Of a stretch of 64,000 nt of DNA, positions 59,096 to 63,969 are shown one piece after another. Below the pieces are notes generated by a model. That model had not been told where the DNA came from. It ran no database searches and saw only the letters and a program-made list of their open reading frames with translations. The DNA is from a virus (lineage: Duplodnaviria > Caudoviricetes): positions 1-64,000 of the IMG/VR virus record IMGVR_UViG_3300006169_000009. One strand, 5' to 3'. Numbering within the stretch: the first letter of the stretch is position 1; the number at the start of each line of letters is the position of its first letter. A program made the translations under genes and the position numbers.

Positions 59096-59340
59096 CCCTC
59101 CTGGATGTACCCGCGTGCAGCACCGTCGATACGGGCCGCCGAGAGCGCGCAGGCGGTAGGGCCAGAGCCCCAGCCACGCTCCTGGGTGGTGACCTTGGAG
59201 CCAGCGCGCATGGCGTCGGAGAGGGTGTACTTGGTCAGCACGCCCATCTCGATCTCACCCAGTTCCGCCTTCAGGGCCTGGGTCGCCTCCGGCCAGATCT
59301 CCTCCGTGGTCTTGGGAGTCTGCTTCTCCGTGGTGCTCAT
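59092..59340 (-). CDS. hypothetical protein
   Basis: ATG at 59340 with GAGGA. Confidence 0.65.
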   Translation of the reverse strand: MSTTEKQTPKTTEEIWPEATQALKAELGEIEMGVLTKYTLSDAMRAGSKVTTQERGWGSGPTACALSAARIDGAARGYIQEG

Positions 59341-60385
59341 CTGCTTCCTCACTTTCAGGGTTCTGGAACGACAGGTCACAGTCTAGCGTCTCCAGCCAGT
59401 CTGCGATAGCCTCTCGCGTCCACTTGTGGGTGTCGTTGAGATGCACGACTAGGTTGACGACGTAGTTGGTTCTGGGCATGGAACAGAACGTCTTTCCCTT
59501 GTTCTTGCGTACCGGACACTTTGCCTTGGCGGTCTTCAGCGCAGGGATGGCCTTGACCAGTGCCCCGGTCATCGGGTGGTCCTCGTCGGTGTAAGAGGCT
59601 CCGCTATTGGCGGTGTACGGCGTCAACTTCGCCTGGTCTGGCGTGATGGTCTTCTTGGGCTTGTACTCGCCCTTGTGGACCACCAGCGGGAGCGCGTGGT
59701 CGAGGTTCGGGATCTGGTTGGATACCGTGGTGGGGGTCAGCAGACCCTCGATGAGAAGGTCGACAGCGGCCTCAGCCTGATGCTGGGCCAGACCGTGCTC
59801 CATCACGAGCCAACCGATCAGTTCCTGGGGATCGGTGGTGCCTACATGGAAGTGGAACTTCTCCGGGTCCTCATCCACCGGCTCCTCCATCTCGATGTTC
59901 GGGCTGCAGTTGTCGTAGGCAGTGAACGTGCCCATCTGTCGAAGAACGTGGACCTGTTCAAGAGTGTCCTGGACAGCCTCCCAAGGCTTGCCGTCAGTCC
60001 AGTCGCACACGAATACGATCTTCGATCCTGGTCGAAGACCGCGCAGTCCTCTCGGGTGATAGACGAACTTCGCGTCCAGATTCGTGCGAAGGTTGCGAAC
60101 CTCACACCACAACTTGAAGCAGTTGTAGTTCATAGCCACGACGTAGTAAGGCTCGGGGGTGCGGAACAACTTCAGGCCCAGCAGGTTCTCCCACGTGTCG
60201 TGCTTGTGGGTGTTGGGCTTCATGTCGATGAGGACCTTCAGGCTGGCGTGCTGCGCAGGAGTCATGACGAAATCAACCGATCCACCAGTCTGGTGATTAG
60301 AGACAACCCCGCCGTACTTGTAGTCCTTGTATCCGACGGGCTTCCATGGCGAGGAGATCTGGTACAAACCATAAGACTGGGACAC
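59255..60385 (-). CDS. hypothetical protein
   Basis: GTG at 60385 with GAGAGG; C-terminal C..C..HLNDTHKWTREAIADWL. Confidence 0.65.
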   Translation of the reverse strand: MSQSYGLYQISSPWKPVGYKDYKYGGVVSNHQTGGSVDFVMTPAQHASLKVLIDMKPNTHKHDTWENLLGLKLFRTPEPYYVVAMNYNCFKLWCEVRNLRTNLDAKFVYHPRGLRGLRPGSKIVFVCDWTDGKPWEAVQDTLEQVHVLRQMGTFTAYDNCSPNIEMEEPVDEDPEKFHFHVGTTDPQELIGWLVMEHGLAQHQAEAAVDLLIEGLLTPTTVSNQIPNLDHALPLVVHKGEYKPKKTITPDQAKLTPYTANSGASYTDEDHPMTGALVKAIPALKTAKAKCPVRKNKGKTFCSMPRTNYVVNLVVHLNDTHKWTREAIADWLETLDCDLSFQNPESEEADEHHGEADSQDHGGDLAGGDPGPEGGTG

Positions 60386-60414: not shown

Positions 60415-60431
60415 ACTCAACAGTGGAGCCA
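60415..60431 (-). repeat. 3' arm of the 17-bp inverted repeat enclosing the RNA operon
   Basis: ACTCAACAGTGGAGCCA is the reverse complement of 63947-63963. Confidence 0.85.
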
Positions 60432-60432
60432 G

Positions 60433-60510
60433 TGGAGATGGCGGGACTCGAACCCGCGTCCGCCGTCAGTCCGCATGCGGTCTTCCGACGTCGAACTACC
60501 ATGCATCCCC
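60433..60510 (-). ncRNA. mini-tmRNA consisting of the tRNA-like domain only
   Basis: GGGGAUG/CAUCUCC-A acceptor with G3.U70, UUCGAC, helix 2 capped by CAUG, GGAC-GCGGG-UUCGAGU-CCCGC. Confidence 0.8.
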
Positions 60511-60694: not shown

Positions 60695-60877
60695 TCAGCG
60701 CCGACGGCCCTGACAGGTGTTGAGGTGACCCAGCAAGGCCGGGCCGCCGATCTTGATGAACGCCCCGCAGTGCCAGGGGCAGGCCCCGGTAGTGCGCTTG
60801 ATGCCCATCTTCTTCATGTACGCGGCCATCTCCTGGTCAGACTTGGAGCGCGTGCCACGACGGTCGTTTGCGGACAT
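60695..60877 (-). CDS. small basic Zn-finger protein
   Basis: CPWHC..HLNTC; SD AGGAAGG. Confidence 0.6.
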   Translation of the reverse strand: MSANDRRGTRSKSDQEMAAYMKKMGIKRTTGACPWHCGAFIKIGGPALLGHLNTCQGRRR

Positions 60878-61104: not shown

Positions 61105-61138
61105 TGTCCTTCTCCTCTCAGACATGGCCAGTGTAGCG

Positions 61139-61211
61139 AGCCCCTGACAGGATTCGAACCCGCATTTCGCCTGAGTCGTATTCAGGTGCCTCTCCGTTAG
61201 ACTACAGGGGC
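61139..61211 (-). tRNA. tRNA-Arg(ACG)
   Basis: cloverleaf; loop AT-ACG-AC. Confidence 0.9.
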
Positions 61212-61212
61212 G

Positions 61213-61286
61213 TGGAGATGCTTCCCGGAGTCGAACCGGGGTGAACGGGTTTGCAGCCCGCCGCCTAGCCTCTCGGCCAAAGCATC
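61213..61286 (-). tRNA. tRNA-Cys(GCA), CCA encoded
   Basis: loop CT-GCA-AA. Confidence 0.93.
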
Positions 61287-61290
61287 TCGG

Positions 61291-61374
61291 TGCAGGGTGA
61301 AGGACTCGAACCTCCAAGGTCAGATGACACCTGGTTTACAGCCAGGGACGCTACCAGTTACGCTCTAACCCTGC
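61291..61374 (-). tRNA. tRNA-Tyr(GTA)
   Basis: loop CT-GTA-AA; long variable arm. Confidence 0.92.
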
Positions 61375-61376
61375 GG

Positions 61377-61451
61377 GGTGGCGGACGGCCCTCGAAGCCG
61401 CTAATCGACAGATTCACAGTCTGCCCGCTCGTCCACTTCGCGTTCCGCCAC
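61377..61451 (-). tRNA. tRNA-His(GTG)
   Basis: loop CT-GTG-AA; C73. Confidence 0.88.
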
Positions 61452-61453
61452 AG

Positions 61454-61524
61454 TGCTCCCAGAGGGATTCGAACCCCCAGTCACGGTGTGTAAGACCGAT
61501 GGTTTGCCGTTAACCGACAGGAGC
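61454..61524 (-). tRNA. tRNA-Val(TAC)
   Basis: loop CT-TAC-AC. Confidence 0.9.
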
Positions 61525-61595
61525 AAACGGGCTTGGGGTGTCGACTGGTCCCCGCTTCACGGATTCAAACCGATGGACGAGCCCCGCGCCCAACG

Positions 61596-61667
61596 CGGTG
61601 AGTACGGGGATCGAACCCGTGGCCTTCCGGCTGACAACCGGCTGCGCTGCCTCTGCGCCAACCCACC
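61596..61667 (-). tRNA. tRNA-Asp(GTC)
   Basis: loop TT-GTC-AG; G73. Confidence 0.9.
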
Positions 61668-61672
61668 TAGCG

Positions 61673-61746
61673 TGGAGAATGAGGGACTCGAACCCTCCAG
61701 GCCGCGATCTTGCAAGGATCGCCCGGGTAACCCGTGCCCATTCCCC
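61673..61746 (-). tRNA. tRNA-Ala(TGC), atypical D arm
   Basis: G3.U70; loop CT-TGC-AA. Confidence 0.8.
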
Positions 61747-61747
61747 T

Positions 61748-61823
61748 TGGCTGATCTGGTAGGACTCGAACCTACAACCCCCTGATTAACAGTCAGGTGC
61801 GCTGCCAATTGCGCCACAGACCA
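61748..61823 (-). tRNA. tRNA-Asn(GTT), CCA encoded
   Basis: loop CT-GTT-AA. Confidence 0.93.
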
Positions 61824-61828
61824 ATGAG

Positions 61829-61901
61829 TAGCGGTGACGGGATTCGAACCCGTAGTACCCAGATTATGAGTCTGGCGTGTTGCCGATTACACCACACCGC
61901 G
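61829..61901 (-). tRNA. tRNA-Met(CAT)
   Basis: loop CT-CAT-AA; C1:U72 mismatch. Confidence 0.9.
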
Positions 61902-61906
61902 ATGCG

Positions 61907-61979
61907 TACGCCCAGTAGGACTCGAACCTACAACCCTCTGATTAAGAGTCAGATGCTCTACCAATTGAGCCATAGGCGC
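61907..61979 (-). tRNA. tRNA-Lys(CTT)
   Basis: loop CT-CTT-AA. Confidence 0.93.
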
Positions 61980-62077
61980 ATGTTGCTGACTTGCCCAACA
62001 AGGTTGTGCCACGTTGTTGGCGCTTCCGCAGGGCTAGGCACGTTAGAGCCCCCGCACCGACTGTCAGCGAGCCGTCG

Positions 62078-62151
62078 TGTCCTCGGAGGGACTTGAACCC
62101 CCAACCTGCAGGCTCTCGACCTGCCGCCTCTGCCGATTGGGCTACGAGGAC
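62078..62151 (-). tRNA. tRNA-Leu(GAG), short variable arm
   Basis: loop TC-GAG-AG. Confidence 0.85.
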
Positions 62152-62228
62152 AAGCCCGGACGTCTCCGGGTCGTTCTCATTACGTCGGGTGGCTCCACAC
62201 CGGCTCGTCAGCCGGGATCACCCGAGGG

Positions 62229-62302
62229 TATCCGTGGAGGGACTCGAACCCCCAACATCTTGATCCTGAATCAAGCGCCTCTGCCAGTTGGACTACACGG
62301 AC
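62229..62302 (-). tRNA. tRNA-Leu(CAG), short variable arm
   Basis: loop TT-CAG-GA. Confidence 0.88.
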
Positions 62303-62389
62303 ATGCGTGGGGATACCATTCGCCCCACCACCAGGCTCTACAATCCCATTCCACCTCGGCTCCCGTAGGCTTCGGCCCTGGCCCTTACG

Positions 62390-62473
62390 CGGAGAGAGCA
62401 GGATTCGAACCTGCGGGACGCGAGGCCCACTGAGTTAGCAACTCAGCGCAATAAACCGCTCTGCCACCTCTCC
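62390..62473 (-). tRNA. tRNA-Ser(GCT)
   Basis: loop TT-GCT-AA; long variable arm. Confidence 0.92.
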
Positions 62474-62549
62474 TGGACCCCCCAGCAGGATTCGAACCCG
62501 CAACGCCCGGCTTAGAACACCGTCAGTCTATCCGTTGACCTATAGGGGG
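62474..62549 (-). tRNA. tRNA-Arg(TCT), CCA encoded
   Basis: loop GT-TCT-AA. Confidence 0.88.
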
Positions 62550-62553
62550 ATAG

Positions 62554-62628
62554 TGCGCTGCTCAGGGCTCGAACCTGAAACATCCGGGGTTTGAATCCGG
62601 CACCTCTGCCAAATTGGGTCAGCAGCGC
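62554..62628 (-). tRNA. tRNA-Leu(CAA), short variable arm
   Basis: loop TT-CAA-AC. Confidence 0.87.
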
Positions 62629-62636
62629 GTGTGCGA

Positions 62637-62743
62637 GTCTGCAAGCGCACTCGGCGCGTTATCGGTGCTTCACGTACCGTCGTCAGGCCAAAGGCTTCTT
62701 TCCCTCTTCCGTCGAAGAGGATCGAGAACGGTAACTTGCAGAC
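62637..62743 (-). ncRNA. putative structured spacer RNA (multibranch)
   Basis: 9-bp perfect closing helix GTCTGCAAG/CTTGCAGAC; internal CCTCTTC-GACG-GAAGAGG. Confidence 0.5.
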
Positions 62744-62747
62744 CCAG

Positions 62748-62831
62748 AGGAGGGTAGAGGGTTCGAACCCCTGCCCCGAAGGACACTCCAGTTTTCTAGA
62801 CTGGTCGCCAGCCACTCCAGCAGTACCCTCC
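62748..62831 (-). tRNA. tRNA-Ser(AGA)
   Basis: stem CCAGT/ACTGG; loop CT-AGA-AA; long variable arm with UUCG. Confidence 0.85.
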
Positions 62832-62835
62832 GAAG

Positions 62836-62908
62836 TACCCCCAACGGGATTCGAACCCGTGTTAGCGGCTTGAAAGGCCGCCGTCCTAGTCCACTAGACG
62901 ATAAGGGT
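62836..62908 (-). tRNA. tRNA-Glu(TTC)
   Basis: loop CT-TTC-AA. Confidence 0.92.
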
Positions 62909-62909
62909 A

Positions 62910-62985
62910 TGGCAGTCCGTGCGGGAGTCGAACCCGCGTCACCTGGCTGAGAACCAGACATCCTGGGCCACTAGACGAACGGACC
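62910..62985 (-). tRNA. tRNA-Glu(CTC), CCA encoded
   Basis: loop TT-CTC-AG. Confidence 0.92.
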
Positions 62986-63050
62986 AAGTGCTGTGGCTTG
63001 TCGGACCAGAGCATGAGTCAGCAGGCCCGAGTGGACCTCCAACACCGGAG

Positions 63051-63124
63051 TTGGGGTGGCAGGGCTTGAACCTGCGCATCCGTGCTTATCAGGCACGAGC
63101 CTTGACCGACTTGGCTACACCCCA
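63051..63124 (-). tRNA. tRNA-Ile(GAT)
   Basis: loop CT-GAT-AA. Confidence 0.92.
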
Positions 63125-63129
63125 TCGCG

Positions 63130-63201
63130 CTCCTCCCCAAGGACTCGAACCTCGACCGGATGAATCAGAGTCACCCGTGCTGCCAATTACACCAAGGAGG
63201 A
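63130..63201 (-). tRNA. tRNA-Gln(CTG)
   Basis: loop CT-CTG-AT; U1-A72, G73. Confidence 0.92.
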
Positions 63202-63307
63202 AAGACGCGGACCCATGGCACTACATGGGCTACCCGCTCTGACCACCCCAGGTCTGCACCGTCCTCTGTGCAGTGTTCAGGCGAGGACACCTTGGGGGAG
63301 TGCGCAG

Positions 63308-63381
63308 AGCCTCGTGGAGGATTCGAACCCCCAGCGCGCTGATTACTAAACAGCCGTTCTGCCAGTTGGAACTAACGAGGC
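63308..63381 (-). tRNA. tRNA-Thr(AGT)
   Basis: loop TT-AGT-AA; C2-G71. Confidence 0.87.
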
Positions 63382-63455
63382 ATGCGTACCGTGTTCGCGA
63401 AGGGCGGTACAACCCCTCCTCTAGAACGCCGCTTGTGCGACGGTGCGATCATACG

Positions 63456-63527
63456 AGCGCCGCAGGGGACTCGAACCCCCACCCTATGCTTGGAAGGCAT
63501 CGATGCTGCCATTAACACCAACGGCGC
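63456..63527 (-). tRNA. tRNA-Gly(TCC)
   Basis: loop CT-TCC-AA; U73. Confidence 0.92.
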
Positions 63528-63713
63528 GTGTGTCGGGGACGCAGCGCGGAAACGAGGGGCGTGATCAGTCTCTCGCATGGACCTTGCTTCGCCAGGAGGC
63601 AGCGTTGACGCCCCCGACTTTTATCACCATGACCCAACCCTTCGGTTGAGTAGTTGAAGCGCGGAGTGGAAGACATCCGCCGTGGGGGCGTAGTTTGTGG
63701 CCCCGCGCTTCTG

Positions 63714-63786
63714 TGCCGCCCCGAGGACTCGAACCTCGGCCTCCCGGTTTTCAGCCGGGCGCTCTACCTGTTGTCGCTAGAGCGGC
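63714..63786 (-). tRNA. tRNA-Phe(GAA)
   Basis: loop CT-GAA-AA. Confidence 0.9.
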
Positions 63787-63845
63787 ATGAGCGGGTCTAG
63801 GGTTGTCGACACTTAGCCCCATCGAGGGGGACTCTAGGCCCGCAG

Positions 63846-63919
63846 TCTGAGTGGGAGGATTTGAACCCCCGACCTCCTGAACCCAAATCAGGCGGCATAC
63901 CTGGCTTGCCTACACTCAG
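63846..63919 (-). tRNA. tRNA-Pro(TGG)
   Basis: loop TT-TGG-GT. Confidence 0.92.
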
Positions 63920-63946: not shown

Positions 63947-63969
63947 TGGCTCCACTGTTGAGTTCTCAA
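63947..63969 (-). promoter_or_regulatory. rrn-leader-like (boxA/processing stalk) motif; 5' arm of the 17-bp inverted repeat
   Basis: minus strand TTGAGAACTCAACAGTGGAGCCA. Confidence 0.7.

Follow-up and report, generated by a model that had tools for sequence, protein, structure and literature searches.

Long spacers in the tRNA array of a phage distantly related to BRock: probable internal transcribed spacers, with two candidate small RNAs

An array of tRNA genes on the minus strand of a tailed phage genome (Duplodnaviria; Caudoviricetes; IMG/VR record IMGVR_UViG_3300006169_000009) contains a series of long gaps between otherwise abutting genes, and these spacers are the subject of this analysis. 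The record is 106,055 bp long with 63% GC, and the window, meaning the whole stretch of DNA analysed, is its first 64 kb (positions 1 to 64,000). The reading favoured here, at a probability of roughly 55%, is that the long gaps are the internal transcribed spacers of one tRNA precursor, with at most a role in cis. They would be nothing out of the ordinary, a feature of a familiar kind, and two of them, sp5 and sp9, are candidate RNAs. A preliminary description made from the letters of the window had reported that about ten spacers each fold into a closed, self-contained small RNA, and had proposed that the array delivers a set of unannotated non-coding RNAs (ncRNAs), such as decoys for RNA-sensing or tRNA-cleaving defences. 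The observation was partly confirmed, and the interpretation placed on it found weak support.

Inside the window 24 minus-strand tRNAs were identified with ARAGORN and Rfam, at 61138-63919. A further tRNA-Trp brings the array to 25 genes on the minus strand (61138-64139) that, with it included, cover all 20 amino acids. Thirteen inter-tRNA gaps are of 0-4 nt each, and the ten long gaps that had been described among them are indeed present (58-185 nt), with an eleventh crossing the window end. Gap sizes are bimodal both here and in other phage arrays, being either 0-35 nt or at least 58 nt. In the list of spacers below, sequences are read along the minus strand, the sense strand of the tRNAs, and z denotes the z-score from RNAfold.

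sp1, 61525..61594, minus strand: 70 nt, between tRNA-Asp and tRNA-Val; irregular rod, not significantly stable, z -1.0 (range -1.0 to -1.2).
sp2, 61980..62076, minus strand: 97 nt, between tRNA-Leu(gag) and tRNA-Lys; structure not in excess, z -0.2.
sp3, 62152..62225, minus strand: 74 nt, between tRNA-Leu(cag) and tRNA-Leu(gag); z of -3.0 for either strand.
sp4, 62304..62388, minus strand: 85 nt, between tRNA-Ser(gct) and tRNA-Leu(cag); stability below that of its shuffles, z +1.2.
sp5, 62629..62746, minus strand: 118 nt, between tRNA-Ser(aga) and tRNA-Leu(caa); branched fold, z -3.25.
sp6, 62986..63049, minus strand: 64 nt, between tRNA-Ile and tRNA-Glu(ctc); closed hairpin-like fold, insulated, z -2.05.
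sp7, 63202..63306, minus strand: 105 nt, between tRNA-Thr(agt) and tRNA-Gln; a pair of hairpins, neither closed nor significantly stable, z -0.6.
sp8, 63382..63454, minus strand: 73 nt, between tRNA-Gly and tRNA-Thr(agt); without significant stability, z -1.3 (range -1.0 to -1.3).
sp9, 63528..63712, minus strand: 185 nt, between tRNA-Phe and tRNA-Gly; insulated from the flanking tRNAs, z -3.9 (range -3.9 to -4.2).
sp10, 63787..63844, minus strand: 58 nt, between tRNA-Pro and tRNA-Phe; 10-bp closing helix perfect only on the antisense (plus) strand, z -1.8.
sp11, 63920..64063 (in the window to 64000), minus strand: 144 nt, between tRNA-Trp and tRNA-Pro; z -2.2.
tRNA-Trp (CCA), 64064-64139, minus strand: 25th tRNA, just past the window end, called by ARAGORN and missed by the Rfam tRNA model in a whole-genome search.

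One canonical promoter was found in or near the array (TTGACA-N18-TAAGGT, 64052..64023, minus strand), lying in sp11 upstream of tRNA-Pro, where the criterion was a TTGACA-like -35 element, a spacing of 16-19 nt and a TAnnnT -10 element of the Sigma-70/HrdB type. In sp1-sp10 there are no promoters beyond chance. Nor do the spacers contain a minus-strand hairpin followed by a U-tract; the total number of hits in the terminator scan equalled the shuffle expectation, the sole minus-strand match falling inside tRNA-Pro and the match in sp3 being on the plus strand. A single promoter in sp11 implies one precursor from tRNA-Pro onward. Because tRNA-Trp lies upstream of that promoter it is probably transcribed apart from the rest of the array. 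In nine of the 11 long spacers a U stands immediately ahead of the downstream tRNA (binomial P=7e-6), which fits RNase P substrates, since RNase P prefers U at -1. Most abutting tRNA genes have no room for an encoded CCA, and the 3' ends would therefore be formed by endo- or exonuclease together with CCA addition.

The favoured reading would run as follows. A single polycistronic tRNA precursor would be transcribed from the sp11 promoter, RNase P would cleave every downstream tRNA at its 5' end, and the 3' ends of the upstream tRNAs would be trimmed by RNase Z, or by exonucleases plus CCA addition, so that the spacers would drop out as by-products of tRNA-end processing. Release of this kind is plausible because there is one promoter upstream of tRNA-Pro and a U before the downstream tRNA in most long spacers; the spacers would be freed, and nothing found here supports their persistence. 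The same anatomy is familiar from bacterial tRNA operons, whose spacers likewise are non-tRNA sequence between or after tRNAs, co-transcribed and freed by tRNA-processing nucleases (the last two points presumed rather than observed in the present array), and which are mostly by-products, a few having been recruited as trans-acting RNAs.

The comparison of fold energies with dinucleotide shuffles that the preliminary description had called for divided the spacers, four of the ten (sp3, sp5, sp6 and sp9) folding better than their shuffles and the other six no better. These four drive the stability of the set, which has a mean z of -1.6 against -0.23 for random native windows (n=132, 3.8% below -2; Mann-Whitney p=0.002); the probability of finding 4/10 below z -2 is 4e-4 against the same windows. 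A different picture comes from 29 other intergenic stretches of 50-200 nt in the same genome, delimited by a crude gene call based on third-position GC (GC3), which have a mean z of -1.11 with 28% below -2, and against which the spacers show no excess structure (p=0.15). These stretches likewise hold GC-rich hairpins of 10-14 bp, and the array's own tRNAs (n=25) have a mean z of -1.48, again with 28% below -2. Closing helices and fold energy do not set the spacers apart from the ordinary intergenic DNA of this phage. The moderate excess over random windows is also not specific to the array: it is a class property of inter-tRNA spacers, because it recurs in nine other phage arrays, whose 36 spacers have a mean z of -1.31 vs -0.33 for controls (p=4e-5). 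Over this array and the nine others, spacers of 50-200 nt between tRNA genes have, taken as a class, roughly the degree of thermodynamic structure that tRNAs have.

The sense strand was the more stable in 22 of 25 tRNAs (mean -4.3 kcal/mol) vs six of 11 spacers (mean -0.45 kcal/mol); across the eleven spacers there is no sense-strand bias of the tRNA kind. Individual spacers differ widely in this respect. The sense strand of sp5 is 4.2 kcal/mol more stable than its antisense and sp6 has z -2.05 in sense vs 0.0 in antisense; sp3 shows no preference, and sp10 is far more stable on the plus strand (z -1.8 vs -3.9; minimum free energy -21.2 vs -30.6 kcal/mol). The last results from a C.A mismatch in its helix at 63791-63843 on the tRNA-sense strand that is absent on the plus strand, where alone the helix is a perfect 10 bp including one G.U pair.

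The nine closing helices named in the preliminary description were all found in place, to be read on the minus strand, but most are of the size expected by chance and among sp1-sp10 that of sp5 alone is significant. Terminal helices are mostly of 4-7 bp, compared with means of 4.4-5.5 bp in 300 dinucleotide shuffles per spacer, and an end-to-end helix exceeds chance only in sp5 (13 bp, 0/300 shuffles) and sp11 (8 bp, P=0.03). Closed minimum-energy folds occur in 6/10 spacers vs 31-38% of shuffles (binomial P=0.08). The 5-bp closing helix of sp1 is chance-sized (P=0.75), as is that of sp8 (about 5 bp, with a mismatch inside the 7-mer pair that had been named), and the 6-bp helix of sp2 has P=0.25. 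TCGGGTG/CACCCGA closes 40 of the 74 nt of sp3, which forms three separate hairpins (three stems in the exterior loop) and no single closed domain. The hairpin in sp1 that had been called T-loop-like has a stem of just 3 bp and is not tRNA-like by covariance model. It is the reverse complement of the tRNA-Leu(CAA) anticodon stem-loop, with a perfect 12-nt inverted match between 61560-61571 and 62588-62599 (I12), the latter in the anticodon arm.

Co-folding with both flanking tRNAs found five of the 11 spacers to be self-contained (sp1, sp5, sp6, sp9 and sp10), and sp2, sp3, sp4, sp7 and sp11 not to be. In this context sp1 was kept apart from its neighbours, cross-pairing of sp2 was at shuffle level, the predicted pairing of sp4 with the flanking tRNAs exceeded every shuffle and that of sp5 was zero. 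The picture of each spacer as a closed, self-contained RNA is thus true of about four or five. In sp1, sp5, sp6, sp9 and sp10 self-pairing might stop invasion of the neighbouring tRNA folds, so that tRNA ends would stay accessible, a role that would be exerted in cis, in the folding and processing of the precursor, and not in trans. The two most structured spacers deserve separate mention. The 13-bp closing stem of sp5 is flush with both tRNAs, and on predicted structure sp5 is the best candidate for a discrete RNA. sp9 consists of three hairpins, two of which have GC-rich stems of 11-12 bp, with an A-rich single-stranded stretch between.

Membership of a known RNA family was not found for any spacer. 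The Rfam search that had been proposed gave no family in the 3.7-kb region at E up to 10, nor in sp5 and sp9 searched alone. Specifically for tRNAs, the spacers gave no Rfam hit at E up to 10 and no minus-strand ARAGORN call down to -ps80. A covariance model made from all 25 tRNAs of the array itself (R1, filters off) scored at most 7 bits on the sense strand of any spacer vs 36-74 bits for all 24 tRNAs searched, while still picking up a degenerate element at 60432-60510 with 27 bits (the gathering score of RF00005 is 29 bits). On these three grounds the idea that spacers are cryptic or decayed tRNAs was rejected, and as no spacer scores tRNA-like, nothing supports the suggested decoy function. 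The best matches to YrlA (RF02553) were 19 and 14 bits (cut-off 69) and overlapped tandem tRNAs, with none in a spacer alone; matches on tandem tRNAs are a known type of false positive (PMC4201824). The TROVE/Ro domain (PF05731), whose gene at a distance of no more than about 4 kb was the criterion for a Y RNA, had no match in the whole 106-kb record and the manA motif (RF01745) none in the window at E up to 10. A long stem formed from the molecule's own 5' and 3' ends, as in Y RNAs, is clear only in sp5 (13 bp), the others being chance-sized.

The statement that the spacers share no sequence with each other was borne out, since motif comparison gave nothing beyond shuffles. There are no further copies of them in the genome and hence no repeat or mobile-element family, complementarity of at least 14 nt to the phage's own genome was at chance level except for a 17-nt match of sp11, and the six-frame search for coding remnants gave only noise against relatives. 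No homologue of a spacer was found in any relative or database searched. Against 50,697 phage records (megablast, blastn) matches were to tRNAs only; a blastn-short search of terminase relatives' loci in IMG/VR and JGI metagenomes, about 1.2 Mb in all, gave nothing below E 0.02; and an exact 24-mer of sp9 had no match in metagenome contigs. A 19-mer of tRNA-Thr(AGT) found two arrays, both unrelated, and a flanking NT5C-like protein had no relative in viral contigs. By these comparisons the spacers are lineage-specific, mutually unrelated, and neither tRNAs nor recognisable tRNA remnants. As a hidden set of ncRNAs they failed to stand out, being not above intergenic DNA in structure, without sense bias, without an Rfam family and without detected conservation.

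BRock-like Streptomyces phages also have tRNA arrays. The large terminase of the virus record is 73-77% identical to those of uncultured soil-type contigs and about 60% identical to those of Streptomyces phages BRock, Alone3, LuckySocke, GiJojo and pSt2308, which by this marker makes the record a distant relative of BRock. In the five named phages the tRNA arrays are syntenic (Pro-Phe-Met-Met-Gly-Gln...) and enclose a Ro-like (TROVE) gene. Orthology with the array described here is not claimed; gene order is partly alike (Pro-Phe...Gly-Gln...Glu-Glu), and tRNA identities are at background except for tRNA-Gln (84%). In Alone3 (L128) a manA-like match of 47.8 bits (E 4e-10) fills the Lys-to-Lys spacer and a YrlA-like match of 33.8 bits lies upstream of Ro, both below the Rfam cut-off (L128 9114-9346 and 6583-6697; also loci L137-L140). 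In the feature tables seen, the BRock-group records list no RNA besides tRNAs. Their 77-nt Pro-to-Phe spacer has 82-97% identity in four of the five phages vs 67-93% for tRNA-Pro, and in pSt2308 it lies within a longer spacer of 133 nt. It has a closed hairpin fold with three compensatory pairs, which makes it a candidate unannotated element; the genome studied here has no homologue of it.

Pro-to-Phe element, recognised by identity and compensatory pairs: L128:2555-2631; L139:2568-2644; L140:2810-2888; L138:4520-4600; L137:9088-9164 (minus strand).

The Ala-to-Lys spacer of the group keeps two hairpins despite turnover of its sequence, and several spacers carry conserved promoter-like TTGACx-N17-TAnnnT motifs. 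Lengths at the same position vary greatly among the five phages (Gly-to-Gln 1, 1, 94, 84 and 97 nt; Phe-to-Met 13, 13, 90, 13 and 78 nt), and because presence varies at equal array positions such spacers are, on the sequences compared, evolutionarily labile. tRNA content as a whole is, on the genomes at hand, highly variable in the phage group. The closest complete relative by terminase (73%) is IMGVR_UViG_3300037193_001436 (G001), a 107-kb genome with direct terminal repeats and zero tRNA genes; more distant relatives (G005 and G017) have 31-32 dispersed tRNAs.

Several points weigh against treating the gaps as nothing more than transcribed spacers. The intergenic control depends on that crude gene call, and insulation over all eleven spacers is not significant (Wilcoxon p=0.41), for which reason it was rejected as a general property of spacers. 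Non-conservation is weak evidence, because the array has no close relative in any of the collections searched, so that the failure to find homologues reflects missing data more than true absence. sp5, with its 13-bp stem and sense preference, and sp9, with z about -4, are more elaborate than insulation needs. Finally, arrays of the BRock group can, to judge from their sequences, house real ncRNAs, for some of their spacers combine conservation with compensatory changes and two give sub-threshold manA and YrlA matches.

The first alternative, a possibility that must be rated unlikely though not negligible, is that sp5, sp9 and possibly sp3 and sp6 are stable small RNAs that are cut out by the enzymes forming tRNA ends and work in trans, whether as sponges, as decoys or by binding proteins. 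The general idea of ncRNAs in phage tRNA arrays has, by analogy, precedent in the Y RNAs near Ro and in RNAC and RNAD of T4. The latter two are stable small RNAs from the T4 tRNA region, experimentally shown and of function still unknown (PMC3014915, PMC9697503); like the spacers they are non-tRNA RNAs embedded in a phage tRNA cluster, with a size near that of sp5 and sp9, whereas the present spacers are known from sequence alone and have no sequence relationship with them. In E. coli, 3'ETS-leuZ and the metZ-metW ITS (external and internal transcribed spacers, respectively) are sponges derived from tRNA-operon spacers (Lalaouna et al. 2015, via PMC9514646). As far as that account describes them, the functional E. 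coli spacers are kept across Enterobacteriaceae and pair with Hfq-dependent small RNAs, unlike those here, for which no conservation was found. Genes for Y RNAs lie close to Ro60/Rsr in bacteria and in 22 phages (PMC4201824). YrlA may resemble sp5 in the stem formed by its 5' and 3' ends, which encloses an internal module, and it resembles the spacers in its location among phage tRNA genes. In the BRock group it would be, with matches below threshold, the closest example known among these phages of an ncRNA delivered by a tRNA array. The genome studied here differs in having no TROVE/Ro gene, no YrlA match outside tRNA overlaps and no tRNA-like domain in the spacers. The manA motif is a structured RNA family known from phages (PMC2864571), and the near-threshold match filling an inter-tRNA spacer of Alone3 is alike in position, in contrast to the present window with no match.

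Both sp5 and sp9 suit this alternative, being significantly stable and self-contained, the sp5 stem coinciding with the tRNA boundaries, and sp5 and sp6 preferring the sense strand. The conserved Pro-to-Phe fold and the Alone3 matches beside a Ro-like gene point the same way. Against it, the lack of homologues leaves no covariation demonstrable, neither an Rfam match nor a Ro gene or YrlA is present, structure is no higher than in ordinary intergenic DNA, and apart from the stalk-arm match of sp11 no complementarity of at least 14 nt to the genome goes beyond chance. A stronger form, which is held to be a little more doubtful still, has sp5, sp9 and perhaps sp3 and sp6 precisely excised from the one-promoter precursor by the host enzymes that form tRNA ends, and the array serving also as a cassette that delivers regulatory or anti-defence RNAs peculiar to the lineage, which would parallel, independently of Ro, the YrlA- and manA-like matches of the BRock group. 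The question has wider interest in that current work looks at the tRNA arrays of phages as tools of counter-defence; if spacers did deliver small RNAs, both the function and the annotation of such arrays would need rethinking. The cultured BRock-like phages, with their Ro-like gene, YrlA- and manA-like matches and conserved Pro-to-Phe element, offer a tractable system for the idea of an ncRNA cassette.

It is improbable that the inverted repeats act instead at the level of DNA or transcription, as internal promoters, operators or terminators without U-tracts that tune tRNA dosage. Such a role would account for the overall equal fold stability of the two strands and for the much better antisense fold of sp10, and has some backing in the promoter of sp11, in the promoter-like motifs conserved in several BRock-group spacers and in the GC-rich hairpins found right after stop codons in other intergenic regions of the phage. 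Yet besides sp11 no promoter-like site above chance was seen in the ten other spacers, there is no sense-strand hairpin with a U-tract, and terminators working efficiently inside an array with one promoter would leave most of it silent. A neutral origin of the spacers as decayed tRNA genes, or as scars of recombination from block assembly with residual structure, would suit the tRNA size of several gaps (58-85 nt), the bimodal gap sizes, an array evolving by duplication and the blocks of roughly 80-130 nt that some BRock-group phages have, and others lack, between syntenic tRNAs, but it too is very doubtful in view of the negative Rfam and lax ARAGORN searches, scores of at most 7 bits under a model that gives 27 to the element at 60432-60510, stems in sp5 and sp9 (11-13 bp) that exceed any tRNA helix, lengths spread over 58-185 nt with no peak at tRNA size, and the absence of coding remnants by six-frame comparison.

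Returning to the array that the favoured reading treats as one precursor, a perfect 17-bp inverted repeat (I2; blast E 7e-4) has its arms at 60415-60431 and 63947-63963 and encloses the 24 tRNAs, two small open reading frames and a tRNA-like element. The second arm lies in sp11, the spacer that also holds the only canonical promoter, and the repeat could form a long-range stalk of the precursor RNA. The enclosed tRNA-like element (60432-60510, 78 nt, minus strand) is downstream of the array and scores 54.5 bits with the Rfam transfer-messenger RNA (tmRNA) model, in an odd full-model alignment, 23.7 with the tRNA model and 27.4 with the array-specific model. The array is adjoined by a gene for a 376-aa protein (59255-60385, minus strand) that has no Pfam domain and, in a set of 5.8 billion proteins, no relative over its full length; similarity to proteins of Streptomyces BE-type phages is confined to the C-terminal 70-120 residues.

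Within sp9 there is an open reading frame of 21 codons (MVIKVGGVNAASWRSKVHARD; 63630..63565, minus strand), which starts 7 nt past GAAGGG, containing the ribosome-binding-site-like GAAGG. The motif ahead of it, AACTACTCA-N3-GAAGG, recurs a single time elsewhere in the genome, within the leader of a 60-aa gene at 60695-60877, and the sharing may be due to chance. Elsewhere in the array tRNA-Asn(GTT) (61748-61823) and tRNA-Lys(CTT) (61906-61979) have 85% identity over 68 nt, with a tRNA-Met between them in the same 78-nt period, which suggests a tandem duplication inside the array with a change of anticodon.

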